From IMG/VR virus record IMGVR_UViG_3300028422_001686: 37,024 nucleotides of DNA; one strand, written 5' to 3'. Source of the stretch: a virus (lineage: Duplodnaviria; Heunggongvirae; Uroviricota; Caudoviricetes). Every line of letters starts with the position of its first letter. Within the stretch, counting starts at the first letter, position 1. The notes beneath the pieces are model-generated. The model searched no databases, was not told where the DNA came from, and worked only from the letters and a program-made list of their open reading frames with translations. This document shows positions 20,115 through 29,571 of this stretch, one piece after another. Made by a program: the position numbers and the translations under genes.

Positions 20115-20227
20115 AATTAGCTCCCCACCTCAGTATCCAAAATACTGTATGCGTTCAAGTGGTATATGTTGGAGTTGGTTTCCTCCTTTGTTACGCAGGC
20201 CCCATATTCTTTGGGGTCTGCTTTTTT
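20115..20227 (+). ncRNA. Candidate structured small RNA or attenuator leader
   Basis: Bounded by a promoter and a strong terminator. Nested stems TAGCTCC/GGAGTTG, CCAC/GTGG, CAGTAT/ATACTG. Unpaired TCCTCCTT. Confidence 0.45.
20195..20227 (+). terminator. Rho-independent terminator
   Basis: GCAGGCCCCA-TATTCTT-TGGGGTCTGC followed by T6. Confidence 0.8.
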
Positions 20228-20241
20228 ATTTGGAATATAAT

Positions 20242-21024
20242 ATGAATTGTTTAAAAAAACTTTTTGGATTAGATAAAAAGAAAGAAAAAGATACATCTCC
20301 TATTTCAAGTTCTGCTTTAGAAGAACGAAGAACGGATCCTGGAATTGTTCCTCCTCCAAACTATATTCCAGGTGAATCTGATACACTAGAACAACCTAAG
20401 GTGACAGTTAACTACTATCCTCCAGCTGTCCATAAGGGTAGAGGTATGGTCTATCAAGGCACATACAAAAAGGGGTATCCAGAAGGGGCTGTAGTTCATT
20501 ACACAGCTAGCGGGAACAGCGTAAGTGGTCTCATGGATCATGCACGTAATTCCCGCTTTCTTTATTTCTTGATTGATAGAAAAGGTGAAGTCTATCAGGA
20601 TTTTGTTTTAAGTAACTGGGGCTATCATGCCGGTAGAAGTACTTGGATTGACTATGAAAATGTCAAAACATTAAATGATAAATTCATTGGGATAGAAGTA
20701 GTTTCTGCGGGCAAGGTTGAAGCTGTTGATAGCGAAGCAAATCCTCCCCTCTACTATAAGACTTGGTTTGGAAAAACACTAAATAAAGAAGAGGTTAGAG
20801 AGATTAATGGTGAGTACTTTCATAAGTTTACAAAAGAACAAGAGAAGTCTCTTATTGATCTTCTAGTCTGGCTGTATAAACAAAACCCAGAAGTATTTAA
20901 GATTGAAAACATTGTCGGACACTGTGAGGTTTCTCCAGGAAGAAAGGTTGATCCTGGTGGATCCTTGTCACTTTCTATGAATGAACTTAGAAAAGTTGTA
21001 GAAAATTTGTCACAAGACTCTTGA
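20242..21024 (+). CDS. N-acetylmuramoyl-L-alanine amidase (Amidase_2 type), probable endolysin
   Basis: AVVHYTA, YFLIDRKGEVYQ, WGYHAG, IGIEV, IVGHCEVSPGRKVDPG. Start moved to ATG 20242 because the ORF-track 5' extension runs through the terminator. Confidence 0.85.
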   Translation: MNCLKKLFGLDKKKEKDTSPISSSALEERRTDPGIVPPPNYIPGESDTLEQPKVTVNYYPPAVHKGRGMVYQGTYKKGYPEGAVVHYTASGNSVSGLMDHARNSRFLYFLIDRKGEVYQDFVLSNWGYHAGRSTWIDYENVKTLNDKFIGIEVVSAGKVEAVDSEANPPLYYKTWFGKTLNKEEVREINGEYFHKFTKEQEKSLIDLLVWLYKQNPEVFKIENIVGHCEVSPGRKVDPGGSLSLSMNELRKVVENLSQDS

Positions 21025-21049
21025 CATTTCTTTTTCTAGACACATATTA
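21021..21049 (+). promoter_or_regulatory. Possible promoter for Hsp20 gene
   Basis: Perfect TTGACA -35. The -10 is weak (CATATT/ATATTA). Confidence 0.35.
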
Positions 21050-21085
21050 CATCTATAAGAAAAAAAATATAACAAGGAGAAAGTA

Positions 21086-21484
21086 ATGAAAAGCTTATTT
21101 AATGATCTACAAAAACTTGCTGTCATCGGTGGTGATTCATGGAAATGGGATAAGAAAAGTCCTTCTGTTTTTGATGACCCCTTCACTGGACTCTCATCTT
21201 TATTAGCTCAGAATAAAGGGTATCGATTTAAGGGTGACTATTTATTTATTGACATCCCTGGTCATGCAAAAAAAGATGTCTCAGTAACTCTTGATGGCCA
21301 CACTATTGAAGTAACATCAAAAGGTGAAGATGAATTTATAGAAAATGTTCACTATATTATTGACCTCAATAGAAAGTTGAATCATACTATTTCTATTGAG
21401 GATGCAAAAGTAGAGAACGGACTTCTATCTATGAAGATCGTTTATAAAGAAAACTCAACACGTGTAAGCGTTGAGATTCAGTAA
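21086..21484 (+). CDS. Small heat-shock protein (Hsp20/alpha-crystallin domain)
   Basis: IDIPGHAKKDVSVTLDGHTIEVTSK...IEDAKVENGLLSMKI. RBS AAGGAG. Confidence 0.85.
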   Translation: MKSLFNDLQKLAVIGGDSWKWDKKSPSVFDDPFTGLSSLLAQNKGYRFKGDYLFIDIPGHAKKDVSVTLDGHTIEVTSKGEDEFIENVHYIIDLNRKLNHTISIEDAKVENGLLSMKIVYKENSTRVSVEIQ

Positions 21485-22202: not shown

Positions 22203-22231
22203 TAGACATTCTATCCTAGGTAAAATATAAT
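22203..22231 (+). promoter_or_regulatory. Sigma70-type promoter heading the radical SAM operon
   Basis: TAGACA-N17-TATAAT. Confidence 0.6.
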
Positions 22232-22261: not shown

Positions 22262-22681
22262 ATGATCACTAAACATGCAATTAACATCTCTGCTCCTGCC
22301 AATGTTCTTTTAACAATGAAGACATCTAACTCCAAAATTATCTCTATTGTAAATAGTAACGGAGATGAAAAATACAATACTGTTGACATTTCATATTTAA
22401 ATAATAACGCTGAGTTATCATTCTCAGAGGCTTTTTCAGGATATGCATATGAGTATTACGCTGAGAGTACTTCTGAGCTTGAAGGCCGAATTAAAGACCT
22501 AGAAAATGCATTACTCCATGTTGCAGATATTCAGAATAAAATGCTGACACTCAATCAAGTAAAAGCATTGTTTGAAGAAAATGCTCTAGCTATTTCTGTT
22601 TTAGAAACAAAGGTTGAAACTTTATCTACAACCCTAGACGAACTTAAGGTGCAAGTAGAAAAACAAACTCAATGGAACTAG
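22262..22681 (+). CDS. Hypothetical protein with C-terminal coiled coil
   Basis: RBS AAGGA. Heptad-like C-terminus. First gene of the operon. Confidence 0.65.
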   Translation: MITKHAINISAPANVLLTMKTSNSKIISIVNSNGDEKYNTVDISYLNNNAELSFSEAFSGYAYEYYAESTSELEGRIKDLENALLHVADIQNKMLTLNQVKALFEENALAISVLETKVETLSTTLDELKVQVEKQTQWN

Positions 22682-22682
22682 T

Positions 22683-23753
22683 ATGTGTAATCTGTCTCTC
22701 TGTAAAAAAGAATTAATGATATATCTGAAAACTACAGAGTTTTGCAACCTTAACTGTCATCACTGTTATAACGGTGAAGAAGGTGTCAAATTAAGCAACT
22801 TTTTAAATACATTTAATAAAGATAAAACGGTTGAGTTTATCAAACAAATGGATGGTAAATTTGACCTAATAGACATCTCTTTTCATGGTGGAGAGCCACT
22901 TTTGGCAGATCCATTGGATATGTTTTATACCTATACGGCTATTAATGAAATGGAAACAGACATTAGATGGGGTATTCAAAGTAACCTATCAATGCAACTA
23001 GATGATGACAGAAAACAGCTGCTGACTATTCTTGCTAAAAATGGTGGCATGGGAACATCTTGGGACTATGATTTAAGATTTCATACACGAGAAATATATG
23101 ATACATGGCGTGAAAATGTTGATTTTATTAATGATATCGAAGGGGCAAGTAATACCTTAATTGTCTCTATGTCTAAACGTCTTGTGACAGAGACAAAAGC
23201 TATAGATATTATTAAGTTCGCCAAATCAATAGGGTTTGATGCAATTCTATTTGAAAGAATTACAAAGTCAGGAAACGCTTTGAATTTTAATAGAATAATT
23301 CCCACAAGTGCTGAAGTGGATAAATACACATTAGATATGTATAATGACACTGTGGAAACAGGAATATATACTGATATAAAGAATAATTATCTATCTTCTA
23401 TCCTCTATCCTTATGTGTTTGGTTCTTTTACAGGCTGTAGAAGTCGAGAATGCGCCCAGAGAGTAATGACAATTAATGCTAATGGATCTATCTCTGGATG
23501 CCCTAACTCTGCTCATAAGGTTATTTTTGGCTCAATTAATAACTCGTTTGAAGATGTCCTAAAAGCTCCTCTTAGAAAAAATGAGATTATAAAAGAGCAA
23601 GTAAGTAAGTGTATGCAGTGTGAATATCTAGACCGCTGTAATGGTGACTGCTATCAACTTACTTATGACGATGAGTGTTATTCTCCAAAGTCTCTATATA
23701 AACTGTTAGAGAAATTACCAAGTCCAGCACTTTTAAAAAAGATAGTATTATAG
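22683..23753 (+). CDS. Radical SAM / SPASM-domain protein 1
   Basis: CNLNCHHC (CX3CX2C), FHGGEPL, C-terminal GCRSREC...GSISGC...CMQCEYLDRCNGDC...C. Confidence 0.9.
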   Translation: MCNLSLCKKELMIYLKTTEFCNLNCHHCYNGEEGVKLSNFLNTFNKDKTVEFIKQMDGKFDLIDISFHGGEPLLADPLDMFYTYTAINEMETDIRWGIQSNLSMQLDDDRKQLLTILAKNGGMGTSWDYDLRFHTREIYDTWRENVDFINDIEGASNTLIVSMSKRLVTETKAIDIIKFAKSIGFDAILFERITKSGNALNFNRIIPTSAEVDKYTLDMYNDTVETGIYTDIKNNYLSSILYPYVFGSFTGCRSRECAQRVMTINANGSISGCPNSAHKVIFGSINNSFEDVLKAPLRKNEIIKEQVSKCMQCEYLDRCNGDCYQLTYDDECYSPKSLYKLLEKLPSPALLKKIVL

Positions 23754-23765
23754 CGGAGTAAGATC

Positions 23766-24446
23766 ATGACTATTTCTAGAGAAAAAATTTCAAAAGCAAG
23801 AACGGTACAAGAGTTCTTAAATAATGTCACAAACTATGTAAAGACTCACTATTTATGGCACAGACAGTCCTATCCTACAGGTGTTTACTTTCCTTACCAA
23901 TGGTTAGACTATTCATCTAATGTGCTAGGCCCAACTACATCAGAACTAGATACTGAAGCTGTTTCTGCTCAGGACTTTGCTCAAAGCTTTGAGTCATGGT
24001 GCAAGACATATACAAGAGCCAGAAAATTAAGACATGTTCTCTATAAAAGACAGTCAGGGAAGTACTATGTAGATACTCCACTTTTAGTAGAATATGATAG
24101 TACAAACTATGCTCTATTTAGTCCAAGTGCTAATATTGTCAATGAAGGAACAGCCTATGCTGTAGGAACTACAGGGTGGAGTTCTAGTGCACAATGGAGA
24201 GTTGTGTCTGGATTAAAAACAGGACTTAATACTGCTGCCTACGCAGGAATAGAAGCAATCAATGAGGCTGCCGGAGTAGATGAAGATATTCCAGCCTATA
24301 TATCTAGCTTCAATACTTTAATTTCAAACCTTAAAAGTAACTGGGTAACAAATCGCGAGACCTTAACAACAAGTGTATACTATTACTGCCATACTAATTG
24401 TTATAGTAAATGTCATAGTAACTGTCACTCTAGGAGTAGAAGATGA
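23766..24446 (+). CDS. Putative radical SAM substrate protein with C[HY]xx-repeat C-terminal tail
   Basis: Ends CHTN-CYSK-CHSN-CHSR-SRR. Only one other Cys in the rest of the protein. Embedded among rSAM genes. Confidence 0.65.
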   Translation: MTISREKISKARTVQEFLNNVTNYVKTHYLWHRQSYPTGVYFPYQWLDYSSNVLGPTTSELDTEAVSAQDFAQSFESWCKTYTRARKLRHVLYKRQSGKYYVDTPLLVEYDSTNYALFSPSANIVNEGTAYAVGTTGWSSSAQWRVVSGLKTGLNTAAYAGIEAINEAAGVDEDIPAYISSFNTLISNLKSNWVTNRETLTTSVYYYCHTNCYSKCHSNCHSRSRR

Positions 24447-25090
24447 TCCTTCCTTTAGAAGTAGATGAACTCTTAAAACTCATGGATAGTGAAGATAGTA
24501 AAAATGAAACTCTCGCTATAGATTATGAAAACTCTGAATTAAAAAGTAGAGATTTCATGAACTATGTCACTAATCTTGGATTAAAAATTAAGTTAGAGAA
24601 CTATGATAATGTTTCAAAAGAAGAGATGGCGGAGCTCATTCATGCCTACATGGGAACTAAATGCCTAATAGAACCTATTGCTGAGCTTGATGACATCATT
24701 GCTACAGCACTGGTAGCTAACCATTTAGATGACAATATCAACTATGTCTATGAGTTCAACAAGACTAGAATCGATGCTTTAGGCCAATTGATTAGAGAAA
24801 TACCACTGGCTATTGCCCTAATGGAAAGTGACATTGCAGAGTCCTTAGATCTAACAGGAGTTACAGTTTATGAAGAATTGGATGAAAAAGATACGCTTAT
24901 ATATAATGGTATCGGCGTTTTGTTACTCGATGATTTTGTTGAGCTATATATATCGATTAAAGGTATTTCTAAAGAAGTAAATAAAGAAAAATTTCTAACT
25001 CCAATCTATAAAAATAATTCTTTATATAACTTTCTCACTGCTAATGACTTTTCATTATTCCAGGTTTATACTGGCTTAATGAGTATGTAG
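24443..25090 (+). CDS. Acidic hypothetical protein (rSAM-cluster accessory)
   Basis: ATGA-coupled to the putative substrate gene. No catalytic motif recognised. Confidence 0.7.
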   Translation: MILPLEVDELLKLMDSEDSKNETLAIDYENSELKSRDFMNYVTNLGLKIKLENYDNVSKEEMAELIHAYMGTKCLIEPIAELDDIIATALVANHLDDNINYVYEFNKTRIDALGQLIREIPLAIALMESDIAESLDLTGVTVYEELDEKDTLIYNGIGVLLLDDFVELYISIKGISKEVNKEKFLTPIYKNNSLYNFLTANDFSLFQVYTGLMSM

Positions 25091-25098
25091 GAGCAAAC

Positions 25099-25986
25099 AT
25101 GATACAGATTGACAATATAAGATACCTCTGTTGGACAGAGGCCTTCCCCTCTATACCTCATAATGAGTCTTATATTCTTATTGATGAGCGTTACACAGAA
25201 GAGCAAAAGAAAAGCAACCTGAAGGTTAGACCTTTTGGCGAGTTAGAGCCTTGTTATATTTTTTCTAACACTCAAGAAATGTTCGACTATCAAAAGGTAA
25301 ATGACGTAGACTTTTGGGCTGAATGGATAGTTGCAGACACTAAGTCATTCTGTAAAATCCTTCACTCTATTGTCGATAAAACATATTATCTATGCGATCA
25401 AGATCTTAGCTATAGAGATCTTTTAAATGCCTATTTTTTAGATTTTTATAGAAAAAACTATAGGGGGATGAATAGAGAAGACGCTATATCTCTATATAAT
25501 GAATTACTTTATGGCGAAGAGCTTTTAGAGGAAAGTCTTAACCCTTATACTTTTGAGCATCAATTGCTGTGCGATCCTCCTGATATCTCTGAAGACATCC
25601 AGGATTGTTTTAATAGATGGAGGGAACAACAGCTAGGCTCTATTTATTACGATCTTATAAAACACTACAATGGTCCATATGGAAGTTTGGGATTATTTAA
25701 TGGTGAAGTTAAAGACTTAATTAACTACGAACTTAATGATGTAAATCTTACAAAGGTCGGAGTTTTTCTTTCATGGGTTACAGGTATGAGTCACAGTGAG
25801 ATTCCAATAGAAGCACTGAAGCTAGACATAGAAAAAGCTGACTTCCACTCACTCCTTAAATGTGACCATGGAACTACATCACATTTAGCCTATTTTGACT
25901 ATATGGATGCCAGTAGGCTTTGTTCTTTAAATGTTATACGTTTCCTTTATGGTGTTGGAGAATTTGACAATGAAATCAATGGCTAG
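25099..25986 (+). CDS. Acidic hypothetical protein (rSAM-cluster accessory)
   Basis: RBS AGGAG. 295 aa. No family recognised. Confidence 0.7.
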   Translation: MIQIDNIRYLCWTEAFPSIPHNESYILIDERYTEEQKKSNLKVRPFGELEPCYIFSNTQEMFDYQKVNDVDFWAEWIVADTKSFCKILHSIVDKTYYLCDQDLSYRDLLNAYFLDFYRKNYRGMNREDAISLYNELLYGEELLEESLNPYTFEHQLLCDPPDISEDIQDCFNRWREQQLGSIYYDLIKHYNGPYGSLGLFNGEVKDLINYELNDVNLTKVGVFLSWVTGMSHSEIPIEALKLDIEKADFHSLLKCDHGTTSHLAYFDYMDASRLCSLNVIRFLYGVGEFDNEING

Positions 25987-27004
25987 ACAATTACTTGGAA
26001 TGAAAATAAAAAATGATTATGAGATAGAAGTTTGCCTTACACAGTATTGCACTAAAGGGTGCCACTTCTGTTATCAAGGTCGTGACTCATCTAGCGAAAT
26101 TGAAACACAAACAATACTTAATTCAATCAATAGAACCATTGAAAAAGCACCAAAAGAAATAAACAGGTTTAAAATTAGTCTACTGGGTGGAGAGCTCTTT
26201 GACCCTTCTTTTGAGAGCTTTCAAGAGCGTTTAGATGTTTATGGGAATATTATTGAAAGTATAATAAACAAAAACCCAGGAAAACTAATCGACTTTGTTG
26301 TTGTAACAAACCTAGAAAGAAATGATTCTGAGTCAGTAAAAATGATTACAGAGTTTCTAGATAATTTAAATAAAGAAAGTTCTAGAGTTAAACTGTCTAC
26401 ATCGTATTATCCAAATGAGACCTCTGAGTTAAATAAGGACTTTATAGGAACACTTCTAGCTTATGACAAAAGGATTGATGGAGTCACTGTAGTTATGACC
26501 TCAGAAACCATAGGTCATATTATTAAAGGTGATGAAACATTTAAATGGTTATATGACTCTAACTACAACATACAATTAGATTATTATACACCTAATTCAG
26601 CTTCTGAAATGCTAATGCCATCTGACCTAGACCTGTATAATTTCTTTACCTACCTAAAGGTGACTGCCCCTAAAATAGAACTTATAGACGCACTATCAAA
26701 TGGAAATGTAAGTCATACATCATGTGCAAGTCCGAATAAATCTACGGTCCTCCCGAATGGAGAAGTTATTGCGTGTAAATATGATATTTCTGATAATGAT
26801 CGATACTTAGTTCCTATTTGCCAAAGATCAAATGAAAATATAATTCTATCTTTTATGAATCAAAATAGCTGTCTTAGTTGTGAATTCTATAAACGGTGCC
26901 CACTTGGATGCTTTGTTATGTTTAACCATAAAGACTATTTAAAAAAGAAAACACTTAGCGGTTGCATTTTTAAAAACTTTTTTAATAAATATAAGGCGGA
27001 ATAA
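25970..27004 (+). CDS. Radical SAM / SPASM-domain protein 2
   Basis: CTKGCHFC, LLGGELF, SCAS...NGEVIAC...CLSCEFYKRCPLGC...C. Start probably ATG 25970 or 25979 rather than 25931. Confidence 0.88.
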   Translation: MKSMARQLLGMKIKNDYEIEVCLTQYCTKGCHFCYQGRDSSSEIETQTILNSINRTIEKAPKEINRFKISLLGGELFDPSFESFQERLDVYGNIIESIINKNPGKLIDFVVVTNLERNDSESVKMITEFLDNLNKESSRVKLSTSYYPNETSELNKDFIGTLLAYDKRIDGVTVVMTSETIGHIIKGDETFKWLYDSNYNIQLDYYTPNSASEMLMPSDLDLYNFFTYLKVTAPKIELIDALSNGNVSHTSCASPNKSTVLPNGEVIACKYDISDNDRYLVPICQRSNENIILSFMNQNSCLSCEFYKRCPLGCFVMFNHKDYLKKKTLSGCIFKNFFNKYKAE

Positions 27005-28057
27005 ATGTATAATTTAACAGAGCTAGTAGAGATTGTTAAATATAGTCTCTTTAATATTCCTAAAAAACAAGAAGGGTCTATTGACCTAATAATCAAACCC
27101 ACTGGTAAATGTAATTTTGCATGTACTTTTTGCTCTTCTCATCTTTATTCTTTAGGGAACGATAAACTTCCTGTCTCCACTATTAGAAAATACCTACTAG
27201 ACTATAATGTTAATTCTATTATAGTCAATGGAGGTGAACCATTAATGATGGATCCGAAGTATTACTTTGATATACTCAAAGACATTCGGAGATTTTCTCC
27301 TAATACCCAGATATCTATAACGACTAATCTCTGGGACTATTGTGAGAACCCTCAAAAATGGAAGGAATTATTTATGCAGAAAGAGGTGGGAGTTATTACC
27401 TCTTTTCAGCCTGATGGAACGAGAATCATTAAGGATAGAGGTGAACCCTTTACTAAAGAAATGTTTTCATTCTGGCTTCAAGAGTTTAAGCAAGAAATTG
27501 GTTATATGCCACACTTTATAACAGTAGCTTCTAGAGATAACTTAGATGGCTGTATAGATGCAATTAAATTAGCAAAAGATCTTGGAACTATCTGTAAAGT
27601 TATTCCGCTTGATAATGCAGGTAGAAGTAGAGATCTTCTAACAACTGGTGAGCTTTTTAAATTCTATGAAAGAGTTTATGAAGAGGGGCTTTCAAAGTAT
27701 GAGGAAAATACTTCCTTAATTGTTGGTGGTAGACTGCTAGGAGCATGTCCATTCTTGCATGGAAAATGCTACAAACACATCATTGCCTTGGATCCAGATG
27801 GTGAAGAGTATAAGTGCGGGGCTATGGCTGATAAAATGCGTCAATTAACAAAGGACGCATATGTTGTTCCTCTAAAACAGGAATGTACAACTTGTAGGTA
27901 TTTCAATTATTGTAATGGTTGTGCTAATACAGTTTTTAGTATGGCAACTAAATATACTATAATAGATTCAGAAGATAAAACAATCTCTTTCTCTAATCAT
28001 ACCAATCTTAATTGTAAGTCAATGAAGTCTCTAACGACTCTTAATCAATTTCTTTAA
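27005..28057 (+). CDS. Radical SAM / SPASM-domain protein 3
   Basis: IKPTGKCNFACTFC, NGGEPL, ACPFLHGKC...DGEEYKC...CTTCRYFNYCNGC...C. Confidence 0.9.
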   Translation: MYNLTELVEIVKYSLFNIPKKQEGSIDLIIKPTGKCNFACTFCSSHLYSLGNDKLPVSTIRKYLLDYNVNSIIVNGGEPLMMDPKYYFDILKDIRRFSPNTQISITTNLWDYCENPQKWKELFMQKEVGVITSFQPDGTRIIKDRGEPFTKEMFSFWLQEFKQEIGYMPHFITVASRDNLDGCIDAIKLAKDLGTICKVIPLDNAGRSRDLLTTGELFKFYERVYEEGLSKYEENTSLIVGGRLLGACPFLHGKCYKHIIALDPDGEEYKCGAMADKMRQLTKDAYVVPLKQECTTCRYFNYCNGCANTVFSMATKYTIIDSEDKTISFSNHTNLNCKSMKSLTTLNQFL

Positions 28058-29051
28058 GAATATCGTATATTTGTCTATAGGAACACTCTTCTTCTTTTGA
28101 GTGTTCCTTTAAGGCACAGTCTACAGAGCAATGCTTTAAGTACTCACAACTAAGACATTGTTTTTTACAGGCTAAATCAAATAACATCTCATCTGGCCTA
28201 CATACTCTAGATTCAGTACAAGACATAATGTCATTCTCTGGAGTTACAACTAGGCTTTCTTTTCCACACTCCATTCTTGCTGATACTTCTTTATTAGCTC
28301 TTCCCTTCCACTCTTTTATTACACTAAATTTTGAAAATTTTGGATGATCTTTTACTAGTCTTACAAAGGATAGTAGTTGGCCTGTACTAGGAATAAGTTT
28401 CTTAAAATCGCTTCCACCAAACACACCTAAATTATTCTTTACTATACTGAAATTAACAGGATATTTTTCTAGTAGGTAGTAAAAATAAGCCGGGATGTCG
28501 CCATCTAAAAACCGGGTTATCGTATTATTAGTTAAAACGAAATTAACTCCGTCAATTAAACTCTCTAAATTCTTTTCATTTTCCTTAAATATTTCTTCCT
28601 GCTCTTCGGTTAAATTCCTGTCTGCTAAATCATATGACACAACAAGTTTCATAGGTGCACACAAACGTATAGCCTCAATAAAATACTTTACTCTTTTCCA
28701 ATTTTTAAATATCAGATTAGATGCCATATCAAAAGATACATTCTTTCCTAAAAGCTTTCCGTAATCCGCCGAGTTAACAACGAGATCCAATACGCCAAGA
28801 AGAAATTCATTTGAAATTGAGTCATCAAAAGTCTCCCCACCAAGTATAGTCGTCAGTACGTTTTCTGCCTTGATGTTTCTATAAAAATCCATTAATATTT
28901 CTTTCTTTTTAGCTAGCGATTCAAATGTTAGTCCTACATCTGACTTATGTGGTTGCTTACAGAAAGCACAATTCAATGAGCATTTGTAAAATAAAAACAC
29001 CTCCGCATCTGCAAAGTTCTCATCTTTTAATGCTGGTAAAACTAATCCCAC
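28041..29051 (-). CDS. Radical SAM / SPASM-domain protein 4
   Basis: CSLNCAFC, LGGETF, ECG...DIMSC...CLSCEYLKHCSVDC...C. GTG start at 29051 (RBS GGAGG) preferred over 29066. Confidence 0.88.
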   Translation of the reverse strand: MGLVLPALKDENFADAEVFLFYKCSLNCAFCKQPHKSDVGLTFESLAKKKEILMDFYRNIKAENVLTTILGGETFDDSISNEFLLGVLDLVVNSADYGKLLGKNVSFDMASNLIFKNWKRVKYFIEAIRLCAPMKLVVSYDLADRNLTEEQEEIFKENEKNLESLIDGVNFVLTNNTITRFLDGDIPAYFYYLLEKYPVNFSIVKNNLGVFGGSDFKKLIPSTGQLLSFVRLVKDHPKFSKFSVIKEWKGRANKEVSARMECGKESLVVTPENDIMSCTESRVCRPDEMLFDLACKKQCLSCEYLKHCSVDCALKEHSKEEECSYRQIYDILKEID

Positions 29052-29290
29052 TTGCCCTCCGAGCATCTAGCTGCCAACAATGGCACCTTTAGATTCATAA
29101 AACATCCACATGACCTACATCTATTAGATGTCTCTATTAAGTAGTCACAATCAAAACAAATAGCCCATCTTTTCTCTTGAACATCTGGTGGAGCTATAGT
29201 CTTTCCTTCAGATGCCATCTTCCGAATAACAGACCCTGCGGTAAGCAAGGCCTGCTTCATCTTAAATCCTAACCCTTTATCGTCTTCCAT
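29042..29290 (-). CDS. Small Cys-rich protein (DUF6171-like)
   Basis: KRWAICFDC...NRCRSCGCFMNLKV...ARCSEGKW pattern. Confidence 0.65.
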   Translation of the reverse strand: MEDDKGLGFKMKQALLTAGSVIRKMASEGKTIAPPDVQEKRWAICFDCDYLIETSNRCRSCGCFMNLKVPLLAARCSEGKWD

Positions 29291-29571
29291 AAATCATCAA
29301 AGTCCTTCTCTGTCTGTTTATTTCTGTCCTGATTGTCTTGGGTGTCTTTTTCTTTCTGCTTAGCTTCTTCCTTCTTTGCGTCCTCTTCCCTTTTCTTTTC
29401 ACTCTGCCCTTTTAGAATAAGCATACCAACGACACCAAAGATTGCAACTAAAGCAATACCAATAATTTTTATAATAAGCATTGGGCCTGTAGATCCAGCA
29501 ATGCCTTGAATAGCATCAACAATTCCACTAATTCCACTAACTGATTCTGTTAGAATATCCTCGGACGCCAT
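29269..29571 (-). CDS. Single-pass membrane protein with charged C-terminal tail
   Basis: Hydrophobic stretch MLIIKIIGIALVAIFGVVGMLIL followed by a K/E/Q/D-rich region. Confidence 0.7.
   Translation of the reverse strand: MASEDILTESVSGISGIVDAIQGIAGSTGPMLIIKIIGIALVAIFGVVGMLILKGQSEKKREEDAKKEEAKQKEKDTQDNQDRNKQTEKDFDDLWKTIKG

Follow-up and report, generated by a model that had tools for sequence, protein, structure and literature searches.

Where phage particles mature covalently, the known cases are mainly proteolysis, with a few self-catalysed cross-links such as the chainmail of the HK97 capsid. The closest described systems to the locus presented here are found among radical S-adenosylmethionine (rSAM) maturation pathways: the His-x-Ser (HXS) system, whose protein-sized rSAM substrate HxsA carries basic His-x-Ser repeats (PMC13128918); the anaerobic sulfatase-maturating enzymes (anSMEs); the triceptides, for which HtkB forms a link from His C2 to Lys C-beta and so documents His as a ring donor (PMC11499958); and the ranthipeptides. 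Here we describe a 37,024-nucleotide stretch of DNA (hereafter, the window) from a virus of the Caudoviricetes (IMG/VR record IMGVR_UViG_3300028422_001686), the last 37 kb (C1:151109-188132) of a complete 188,132-bp phage with direct terminal repeats and 34.5% GC, in which a 226-residue protein ending in a periodic Cys-His/Tyr tail is encoded among four rSAM genes. Our favoured reading, to which we assign a probability of roughly 0.6, is that this would be a virion protein associated with the phage tail or baseplate, the flexible C-terminal tip of which is covalently modified by three classes of SPASM-type rSAM enzyme that lack the recognition element (RRE) of enzymes acting on peptides that are made on the ribosome and modified after translation (RiPPs).

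A periodic Cys-His tail in a family of large-phage proteins

The protein (hereafter, the tail protein) and its terminal motif occupy the following positions.

23766-24446, plus strand: open reading frame (ORF) of the tail protein, 226 amino acids (aa), 25.7 kDa; putative virion protein and putative substrate.
24387-24446, plus strand: periodic tail, with four C-[H/Y]-x-x units (CHTN, CYSK, CHSN, CHSR), then the basic end SRR and the stop codon.

The ORF, which has a GGAG 8 nt 5' of its ATG, ends in ...SVYYYCHTNCYSKCHSNCHSRSRR, followed directly by a stop. An earlier note, made from the DNA letters alone, had placed a tail with Cys at every fourth residue here, and its coordinates proved exact: the codon for Cys208 begins at nt 24387, the TGA ends at 24446, and Cys208, Cys212, Cys216 and Cys220 are followed by His, Tyr, His and His, respectively. 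The last of the four units ends three residues before the C-terminus, which reads RSRR. C79 is the only further Cys of the protein, in line with the single Cys that had been counted outside the tail, and Tyr makes up 19 of the 226 residues. The isoelectric point (pI) is 9.25 over the last 20 residues, versus 6.83 for the body.

Such a tail is not expected by chance. At the amino-acid frequencies found in this phage (Cys 1.2%, His 1.4%, Tyr 4.7%; ~54,000 residues), the expected number of (C[HY]xx)x4 runs in the whole proteome is ~1.5 × 10−8, and only 4 of 200,000 shuffles of the tail protein placed four Cys at a period of four. No second ORF with four Cys at this spacing was present in any of the six frames of the 188-kb genome. 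The four units are written in different codons, arguing for selection on the peptide and against a simple DNA repeat.

The tail protein had no match in Pfam, PHROG or NCBIfam, nor, as a query against a phage collection, by megablast or tblastn, probably owing to divergence and the low-complexity filter; in that collection the family was reached through the neighbouring rSAM gene (rSAM-A, below) by tblastn. A phmmer search of 1.8 billion representative proteins recovered 17 relatives at E ≤ 1 × 10−3, the best full-length one (P0002) at 3.8 × 10−23 over residues 8-225. Together with IMG/VR members from a sub-alignment search and one contig of a metagenome-assembled genome (MAG), these relatives gave a family count of n = 28. 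Runs of three or more contiguous C-[H/Y]-x-x units occurred in 25 of the 28 members (three units in 21, four in 4), and the runs stopped 1-5 residues from the C-terminus in all except one C-terminally extended relative (P0017). Among the 84 units, Cys was followed by His 80 times and by Tyr 4 times (in the window, P0013, P0017 and L015), and the last position was Ser or Asn in 69. An R-x-RR end was found in 21 of the 28 members and RRHR or RGHR in 3 more; 13 members have no Cys outside the tail.

The body varies more than the tail. Across the family it spans 170-430 aa with a variable central insert; the window protein shares the conserved W31 and the Y-T-R-x-R-K-x-R region and, in the family alignment, has a 40-aa insert in the variable mid-region. 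In P0006 and P0012 (426-428 aa), ~240 aa are inserted between the conserved N- and C-terminal parts, a pattern that, read from the sequences, suggests a variable, surface-exposed middle domain.

The earlier note had also pointed to similar tails in other jumbo phages, and these do exist. Read in one representative per cultured lineage, the tails are CHSSCHASCHNSRSRR in Agrobacterium phage Atu_ph07 (gp170), CHTSCHASCHSSRSRR in Sinorhizobium phage Phosso (289), CHSSCHTSCHGSRGRR in the Ralstonia/Burkholderia RSL2 group (RSL2 gp068) and CHTSCHTSCHSARGRR in Pseudomonas phage pPa_SNUABM_DT01 (gp65; hereafter DT01), in each case encoded by the gene directly after the rSAM-A orthologue; the remaining ten RSL2-group records carry the RSL2 gene copy at 83-100% identity. 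One pattern-limited scan of a cellular genome collection returned a single match, a 3455-bp contig of an uncultured Vicingus MAG (CAYRAD010000326.1, our locus L011), with the order rSAM gene, tail protein (CHSSCHSSCHGSRGRR) and accessory gene; this contig may be binned phage DNA. At another locus (L015, 5950-7306), a tandem pair of tail-protein paralogues is present, both ending in CHSSCHSNVTCYNSRGRR, with the third unit shifted by two residues and carrying Tyr. Judged by these sequences, the tail marks an unnamed family of large-phage proteins, and we found no description in the literature of this family or of rSAM maturation of a phage virion protein.

The make-up of the units bears on the main rival explanation, in which the tail stays unmodified and serves a fibre-like virion protein as a tip that binds metal (Zn, Fe, Ni or Cu): its stripes of Cys and His would hold the ions, perhaps shared among a trimer's three chains, and the rSAM enzymes would act elsewhere. 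His-metal sites are known from the fibre tips of phage T4, to which such a tip would be comparable. Cys and His are the commonest metal ligands in proteins, and the unit Cys is near-invariant and the His nearly so. Against this explanation, Tyr takes the place of His in the four units named above, and a pure ligand stripe would not need the confinement of the last position (x3) to Ser or Asn; the recurrent swaps of His to Tyr are easier to reconcile with an aromatic-ring requirement than with Zn ligation.

Linkage to three classes of radical SAM enzyme

The tail gene of the window lies in a cassette with the following genes.

22683-23753, plus strand: rSAM-A, 356 aa, radical SAM/SPASM enzyme without RRE, directly upstream of the tail gene.
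24443-25090, plus strand: accessory protein, 215 aa, acidic (pI 4.2), its ATG overlapping the tail-gene stop (ATGA).
25931-27004, plus strand: rSAM-B1, up to 357 aa, radical SAM/SPASM enzyme.
27005-28057, plus strand: rSAM-C, 350 aa, radical SAM enzyme with a Cys-rich C-terminal domain.
28041-29066, minus strand: rSAM-B2, 341 aa, radical SAM/SPASM enzyme and paralogue of rSAM-B1.

When rSAM-A was used as a tblastn query, 15 of 50,697 phage records matched, spanning the four cultured jumbo-phage lineages named above, and rSAM-C recovered the same 15. Tail homologues in these records were identified by tblastn in 11 and by direct reading in the other lineages, and rSAM-A precedes the tail gene in Atu_ph07, Phosso, RSL2 and DT01 alike. 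At ten further uncultured loci, the gene immediately before the tail gene has the CX3CX2C motif in 8, and a gene with that motif is found within 5 kb of it in all 10. The earlier note had named homologues lacking the tail, or standing without rSAM neighbours, as observations that would tell against a link; in the family, 25 of 28 members have the tail and all have rSAM neighbours. It had also allowed that the match between four units and four rSAM genes might be coincidental, and we judge that it is: rSAM-B1 and rSAM-B2 (the second and fourth rSAM genes) fall into one class as paralogues, and three to six rSAM genes occur in relatives whose tail has three units.

By blastp, the enzymes fall into three conserved classes, A, B and C. 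Full-length orthologues of rSAM-A (Atu_ph07 gp171, Phosso 290, RSL2 gp067 and DT01 66) are 29-35% identical to it; those of rSAM-B1 are RSL2 gp072 (4 × 10−40), Phosso 287, Atu_ph07 gp168 and DT01 62; and those of rSAM-C are DT01 60 (4 × 10−59), RSL2 gp075, Phosso 284 and Atu_ph07 gp165. The best matches of rSAM-B2 are the same class-B enzymes as for rSAM-B1 (Atu_ph07 gp168 and RSL2 gp072). All four window enzymes have the CX3CX2C motif of the SAM cluster, a GGE motif and a SPASM-like C-terminal Cys cluster: at residues 21, 69 and 310 (CX2CX5CX3C, plus further C-terminal Cys) in rSAM-A; at 40, 86 and 314 (CX2CX5CX3C) in rSAM-B1; at 36 and 76, with Cys 294/297/303/306, in rSAM-C; and at 29, 76 and 304 (CX2CX5CX3C) in rSAM-B2. 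In rSAM-A, Pfam Radical_SAM and SPASM both score above their cut-offs, and in rSAM-C, Radical_SAM scores 33.3 bits; phrog_1802 is matched by rSAM-A (2 × 10−42), rSAM-B1 (2 × 10−23) and rSAM-B2 (6 × 10−14). With the SAM-cluster motif and the C-terminal Cys cluster, the window enzymes belong to the radical SAM/SPASM superfamily.

Their nearest solved relatives are the peptide and protein maturases TigE, anSME and CteB. A class-A family profile matched TigE (8VPO; 6.8 × 10−17, chain residues 112-459) and anSME (4K36-39; 5 × 10−14), and as the TigE alignment skips that enzyme's RRE (residues 3-85), the phage enzymes lack a leader-recognition domain. The four window enzymes all fell short of the curated cut-offs for cyclophane, ranthipeptide, HXS and sulfatase maturases, the best scores being 62 bits for DynA (cut-off 450), 55.4 for anSME (349.45), 47 for PapB (340) and 36.7 for HxsC (267.9).

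These linkage data weaken the metal-binding explanation further, which leaves unexplained why the tail co-occurs perfectly with, and lies next to, three rSAM classes across unrelated lineages; nor is there an alternative conserved, repeat-bearing substrate candidate in the cassette. We regard an unmodified metal-binding tip as unlikely, and as the main rival nonetheless. A different explanation is that the rSAM enzymes tailor some other target (a sugar, lipid, DNA or another virion protein) and that the tail protein is a co-inherited neighbour within a block of tail-fibre or host-recognition genes. Phage rSAM enzymes are known to take part in DNA hypermodification pathways (PMC8989533), and the cassette lies beside tail-fibre genes in the window and in relatives. 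The enzymes, in contrast, are of the SPASM type with peptide and protein maturases as nearest solved relatives, no sugar- or nucleotide-handling genes lie between the window rSAM genes, and it is the tail gene that forms the fixed point of the cassette, whereas oxygenases and a second accessory protein vary; we consider another target improbable.

Predicted structure and presence in the virion

In an AlphaFold2 (AF2) model, the window protein has an alpha/beta body (mean predicted local distance difference test score (pLDDT) 70.5; predicted template modelling score 0.68). The pLDDT falls to 48 and 42 in the last two 10-residue blocks and is below 50 for residues 218-226, so the tail is probably flexible and maybe accessible. 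Among the fold matches of the model in BFVD, family members were the clearest; by Foldseek, Atu_ph07 gp170 and a 178-aa phage protein matched with probability 1.00, and three larger proteins of an uncultured myovirus matched more weakly. Against the PDB, no Foldseek match reached E ≤ 0.001 and the best VIA match (Z 5.7) was helical-bundle noise; for the body, ESM Atlas gave no usable match, and a profile search of PDB sequences gave only matches at E > 0.1.

Evidence that a family member enters the particle comes from Atu_ph07. In the published virion proteome of this phage (electrospray ionization tandem mass spectrometry; Table S5 of PMC6102473), gp170 is listed at 31.89 kDa, fitting its 296-aa ORF, with 8 unique peptides and 35% coverage. 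The same table places it in gel bands 1-9, with peak abundance in band 1 at the top of the gel (PMC6102473), whereas among the listed proteins a 127-kDa protein occurs in band 1 only, proteins of 117-137 kDa peak in band 2, ~30-kDa proteins peak in bands 7-8 and those of 9-15 kDa in bands 12-13 (PMC6102473). This anomalous migration would fit covalent cross-linking. The cupin, the three rSAM enzymes and the accessory proteins (gp164-169, 171 and 172) are not among the entries of Table S5 from gp20 to gp197 (PMC6102473). The earlier suggestion of a structural protein is borne out for the homologue gp170; for the protein of the window, which comes from an uncultured phage, it would hold by analogy only.

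The finding that gp170 is abundant in the virion and the enzymes are not, as far as the listed part of the proteome goes (PMC6102473), also bears on a further explanation, in which the tail is a scaffold for a released small molecule or cofactor (as PqqA is for PQQ and MftA for mycofactocin) or holds an Fe-S cluster that serves the enzymes. The motif does stand at the extreme C-terminus beside SPASM enzymes, and the mycofactocin and PQQ maturases are SPASM enzymes to whose models there are weak matches. Apart from the presence of gp170 in the particle, however, a body of the size and variable central insert found across the family is unlike a scaffold peptide, and the cassette holds no peptidase or exporter gene, making this explanation very improbable.

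A second connection to phage tails comes from P0017 (299 aa; L009, 8001-8900), which runs on past its Cys-His tail (...CHSQCHSNCYAKCSHSF) into a Peptidase_S74 domain (PF13884; 37.5 bits versus a cut-off of 22) that begins at residue 217, directly after the tail. In endosialidase-type fibres, the S74 domain acts as a chaperone while the trimer folds, after which it cuts at its own first Ser and is released. Such self-cleavage would make the Cys-His tail of P0017 the mature C-terminus, and P0013, its sister, stops at the equivalent point without an S74 domain. By analogy, the domain suggests a trimeric, fibre-like assembly, as the metal-binding explanation would also have it. No Peptidase_S74 domain was found by Pfam in the window protein, P0017 being the one relative that has it, and a three-copy prediction of that protein with the family alignment scored 0.00 (versus a mark of 0.42), which carries no weight either way. 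The 207-kb contig that encodes P0017 also has, in its cassette, an aminotransferase, an epimerase and five rSAM genes.

A proposed maturation pathway

We propose that rSAM-A, the tail protein and the 215-aa accessory protein would be co-produced, as suggested by the tight packing of the genes and by the overlap of the accessory start with the tail-gene stop. For the RRE-less, anSME-like enzymes, the target would then be a protein's terminal tail and not a peptide with a leader; classes A, B and C would each abstract hydrogen at defined positions of the repeat unit and install Cys thioethers, three-residue cyclophane links from the His or Tyr ring to a C-beta, or both. The product would be a rigid tip resistant to proteases and sodium dodecyl sulfate (SDS), possibly with links between subunits; the enzymes would remain in the cell, and the particle would take up the protein in its matured form.

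That the tail is the substrate is suggested by its fixed adjacency to and perfect co-occurrence with the enzymes, by the repeats and by the constraint on all four positions of the unit, and likewise by its predicted flexibility, the RRE-less build of the enzymes and the presence in the virion of the protein but not of the enzymes. From these observations we infer the substrate, and with it the type of chemistry and the place and role of the protein in the particle.

Several points weigh against this reading. Modification has so far been observed in no member of the family, and Cys and His are classic metal ligands. Because no curated cut-off is reached, the chemistry of the enzymes is unreadable from homology. 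The virion evidence comes solely from gp170, a distant homologue that blastp aligns with the window protein over only the C-terminal 43 residues at 30% identity. The loading buffer of the Atu_ph07 gel, as listed, holds no reductant (PMC6102473), so the high-mass migration of gp170 could equally reflect disulfides or an SDS-stable oligomer, and such a gel is compatible with the disulfide- or metal-stabilised oligomers that an unmodified metal-binding tip might form. In the listed data, other Atu_ph07 proteins, too, run above their calculated mass, for example gp197 (87 kDa, band 1) and gp196 (58 kDa, band 2) (PMC6102473). Finally, in P0014 (L008, 990-1607) the repeats are lost and the tail reads FCYTYSQWLNNRGRR, while the upstream rSAM and the downstream accessory gene are kept. 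The upstream rSAM gene of P0014 is shortened, and its contig is only 2.8 kb long.

A reduced cassette

Two further genes of the cassette complete the window's arrangement.

22262-22681, plus strand: 139-aa acidic ORF (pI 4.7) with a coiled-coil-like C-terminal half, in the slot directly upstream of rSAM-A.
25099-25986, plus strand: 295-aa acidic protein (pI 4.6) without a match in Pfam, PHROG or NCBIfam.

The cultured relatives have a cupin in the slot held here by the 139-aa ORF, which had no Pfam match, only a weak one to phrog_22842 and, by blastp, none to the Atu_ph07, RSL2, Phosso and DT01 cupins; at the closest relative locus (L006), that slot is taken by a 148-aa ORF, likewise coiled-coil-like. 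All four cultured lineages carry this upstream cupin and nearby 2-oxoglutarate (2OG) oxygenases, unlike the window phage, in which no cupin_2 or 2OG-Fe(II) oxygenase gene was found across the 188-kb genome. The window therefore holds a reduced cassette, which keeps the three rSAM classes, the tail protein and its 215-aa partner and lacks a cupin, 2OG oxygenases and the second accessory protein usual in other cassettes. The sequencing runs holding this DNA are labelled hydrothermal vent metagenome, which is probably the source sample, and none of those listed is RNA; we speculate that an oxygen-poor habitat might lie behind the loss of oxygen-dependent enzymes.

The 215-aa protein matches phrog_20767 (function unknown) and Atu_ph07 gp169 (blastp, 1 × 10−10), and its homologue immediately follows the tail gene at five loci (L006, L007, L008, L009 and L013) and is found nearby at two others (L015 and L018). 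Its AF2 model is confident over the N-terminal 125 residues. An RRE fold was considered for this protein and found no support, as the best PDB match had a Z of 3.8 and the only AFDB-cluster match was one uncharacterised 245-aa protein. The 295-aa protein was likewise considered as a homologue of the usual second accessory proteins (300-370 aa), to which it has no detectable similarity. The longest frame of rSAM-B1 overlaps the 295-aa gene by 56 nt (25931-25986), so the true start may lie further downstream, and rSAM-B2 converges on rSAM-C with the 3' ends overlapping by 17 nt (28041-28057).

The cassette is flanked by tail-fibre-like genes (phrog_4492) and lysis genes, placing it between lysis and tail-fibre functions. 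Upstream lie endolysin/amidase-like and Hsp20-like genes (20149-21484), and just past rSAM-B2 there is a weak match to an Rz-like spanin (29269-29571). A promoter-like TAGACA-17-TATAAT occurs at 22203-22231; such sites are no commoner here than in shuffled sequence.

Implications

Taken as a whole, the full proposal, that large phages use three rSAM/SPASM enzymes to stitch the Cys-His(Tyr) tail of a virion protein into a cross-linked tip through a linkage not described before, stands in our estimate at slightly less than even odds. If it is true, this would be the first rSAM-dependent step in the assembly of a virus particle, and a multi-enzyme rSAM pathway acting on a virion protein would add a new layer to virus assembly. 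It would also bring a new class of RiPP-type substrate, a folded structural protein, and the cross-link may be new as well. The window contributes the oxygenase-free form of the cassette and a four-unit tail with Tyr and with N, K or R at the last unit position; its make-up shows the cupin, 2OG oxygenases and second accessory protein of other cassettes to be dispensable, and this vent-phage version would then define a minimal enzyme set. Because the cassette is present in growable phages of plant and human pathogens (Agrobacterium, Ralstonia, Burkholderia and Pseudomonas), the proposal is directly testable.

Comparison with known systems

Phage fibres and spikes that end in an S74 domain offer a structural comparison, with P0017 being alike and the cassette adjoining tail-fibre genes; the window protein differs in having neither an S74 domain nor a recognisable fibre fold in its body. 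For the proposed chemistry, the HXS system provides a close precedent, in that HxsA is matured by more than one rSAM enzyme (HxsB and HxsC) with a small partner, HxsD (PMC13128918), and the family consensus C-H-x-S contains an HXS-type His-x-Ser. The tail units differ from HxsA in adding a near-invariant Cys, a period of four and a C-terminal location, and those of the window read H-x-N, Y-x-K, H-x-N and H-x-R instead of H-x-S. HXS is a bacterial antiphage defence in which HxsA has a peptidoglycan-binding domain, whereas the tail system is phage-encoded and has a distant homologue in the virion; the best HxsC score, that of rSAM-C, lies at 36.7 bits versus 267.9, and the tail protein matches no HxsA model.

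The anSMEs (TIGR03942; 4K36-4K39) are minimal rSAM/SPASM enzymes of ~350-370 aa that modify Cys or Ser of a full-length protein, and the phage enzymes resemble them in lacking an RRE. The tail does not contain the sulfatase motif C/S-x-P/A-x-R, and the best anSME score is 55.4 bits against 349.45. The cyclopropylglycine synthases TigE and TvgB are RS-SPASM enzymes (8VPO; PMC10878394), TigE being the best solved match of rSAM-A, and the TvgB precursor has a repeating four-residue motif, TVGG (PMC10878394). TigE differs from the phage enzymes in its N-terminal RRE (3-85), its short leader-bearing substrates and its aliphatic targets.

With the triceptides (maturases HtkB, HaaB, XyeB, YhhB and FxsB; PMC11499958), the tail shares aromatic-x-x triplets whose third residue has a C-beta (HTN, YSK, HSN and HSR; H-x-S/N in the family). 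The part of the earlier analogy to three-residue cyclophanes that concerned the triplets thus stands. The enzymes do not follow it: matches to the XyeB, YhhB, FxsB and AmcB models reach 26-33 bits where 370-450 are required and do not extend beyond the N-terminal SAM core, so the analogy stays a possible one. Triceptide precursors are short and leader-bearing, in contrast to the 226-aa candidate with its predicted folded body, and have no counterpart of the tail's invariant Cys. The PapB ranthipeptides (Cys-X3-Asp/Glu) likewise have Cys at every fourth residue beside an rSAM/SPASM enzyme (PMC12373016). Here the earlier analogy fails on the acceptor motif, as the tail CHTNCYSKCHSNCHSRSRR has no Asp or Glu and position i+4 is the next Cys. 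PapB, moreover, acts on a leader-bearing peptide, which the tail protein is not, and its model (NF047865) is matched by rSAM-A alone, over its full length but weakly at 47 bits versus 340, with no match for the other three enzymes. The phage system falls outside each of these groups by the group's own defining features, but it would work like known rSAM maturation, as seen in HXS, anSMEs, triceptides and ranthipeptides.

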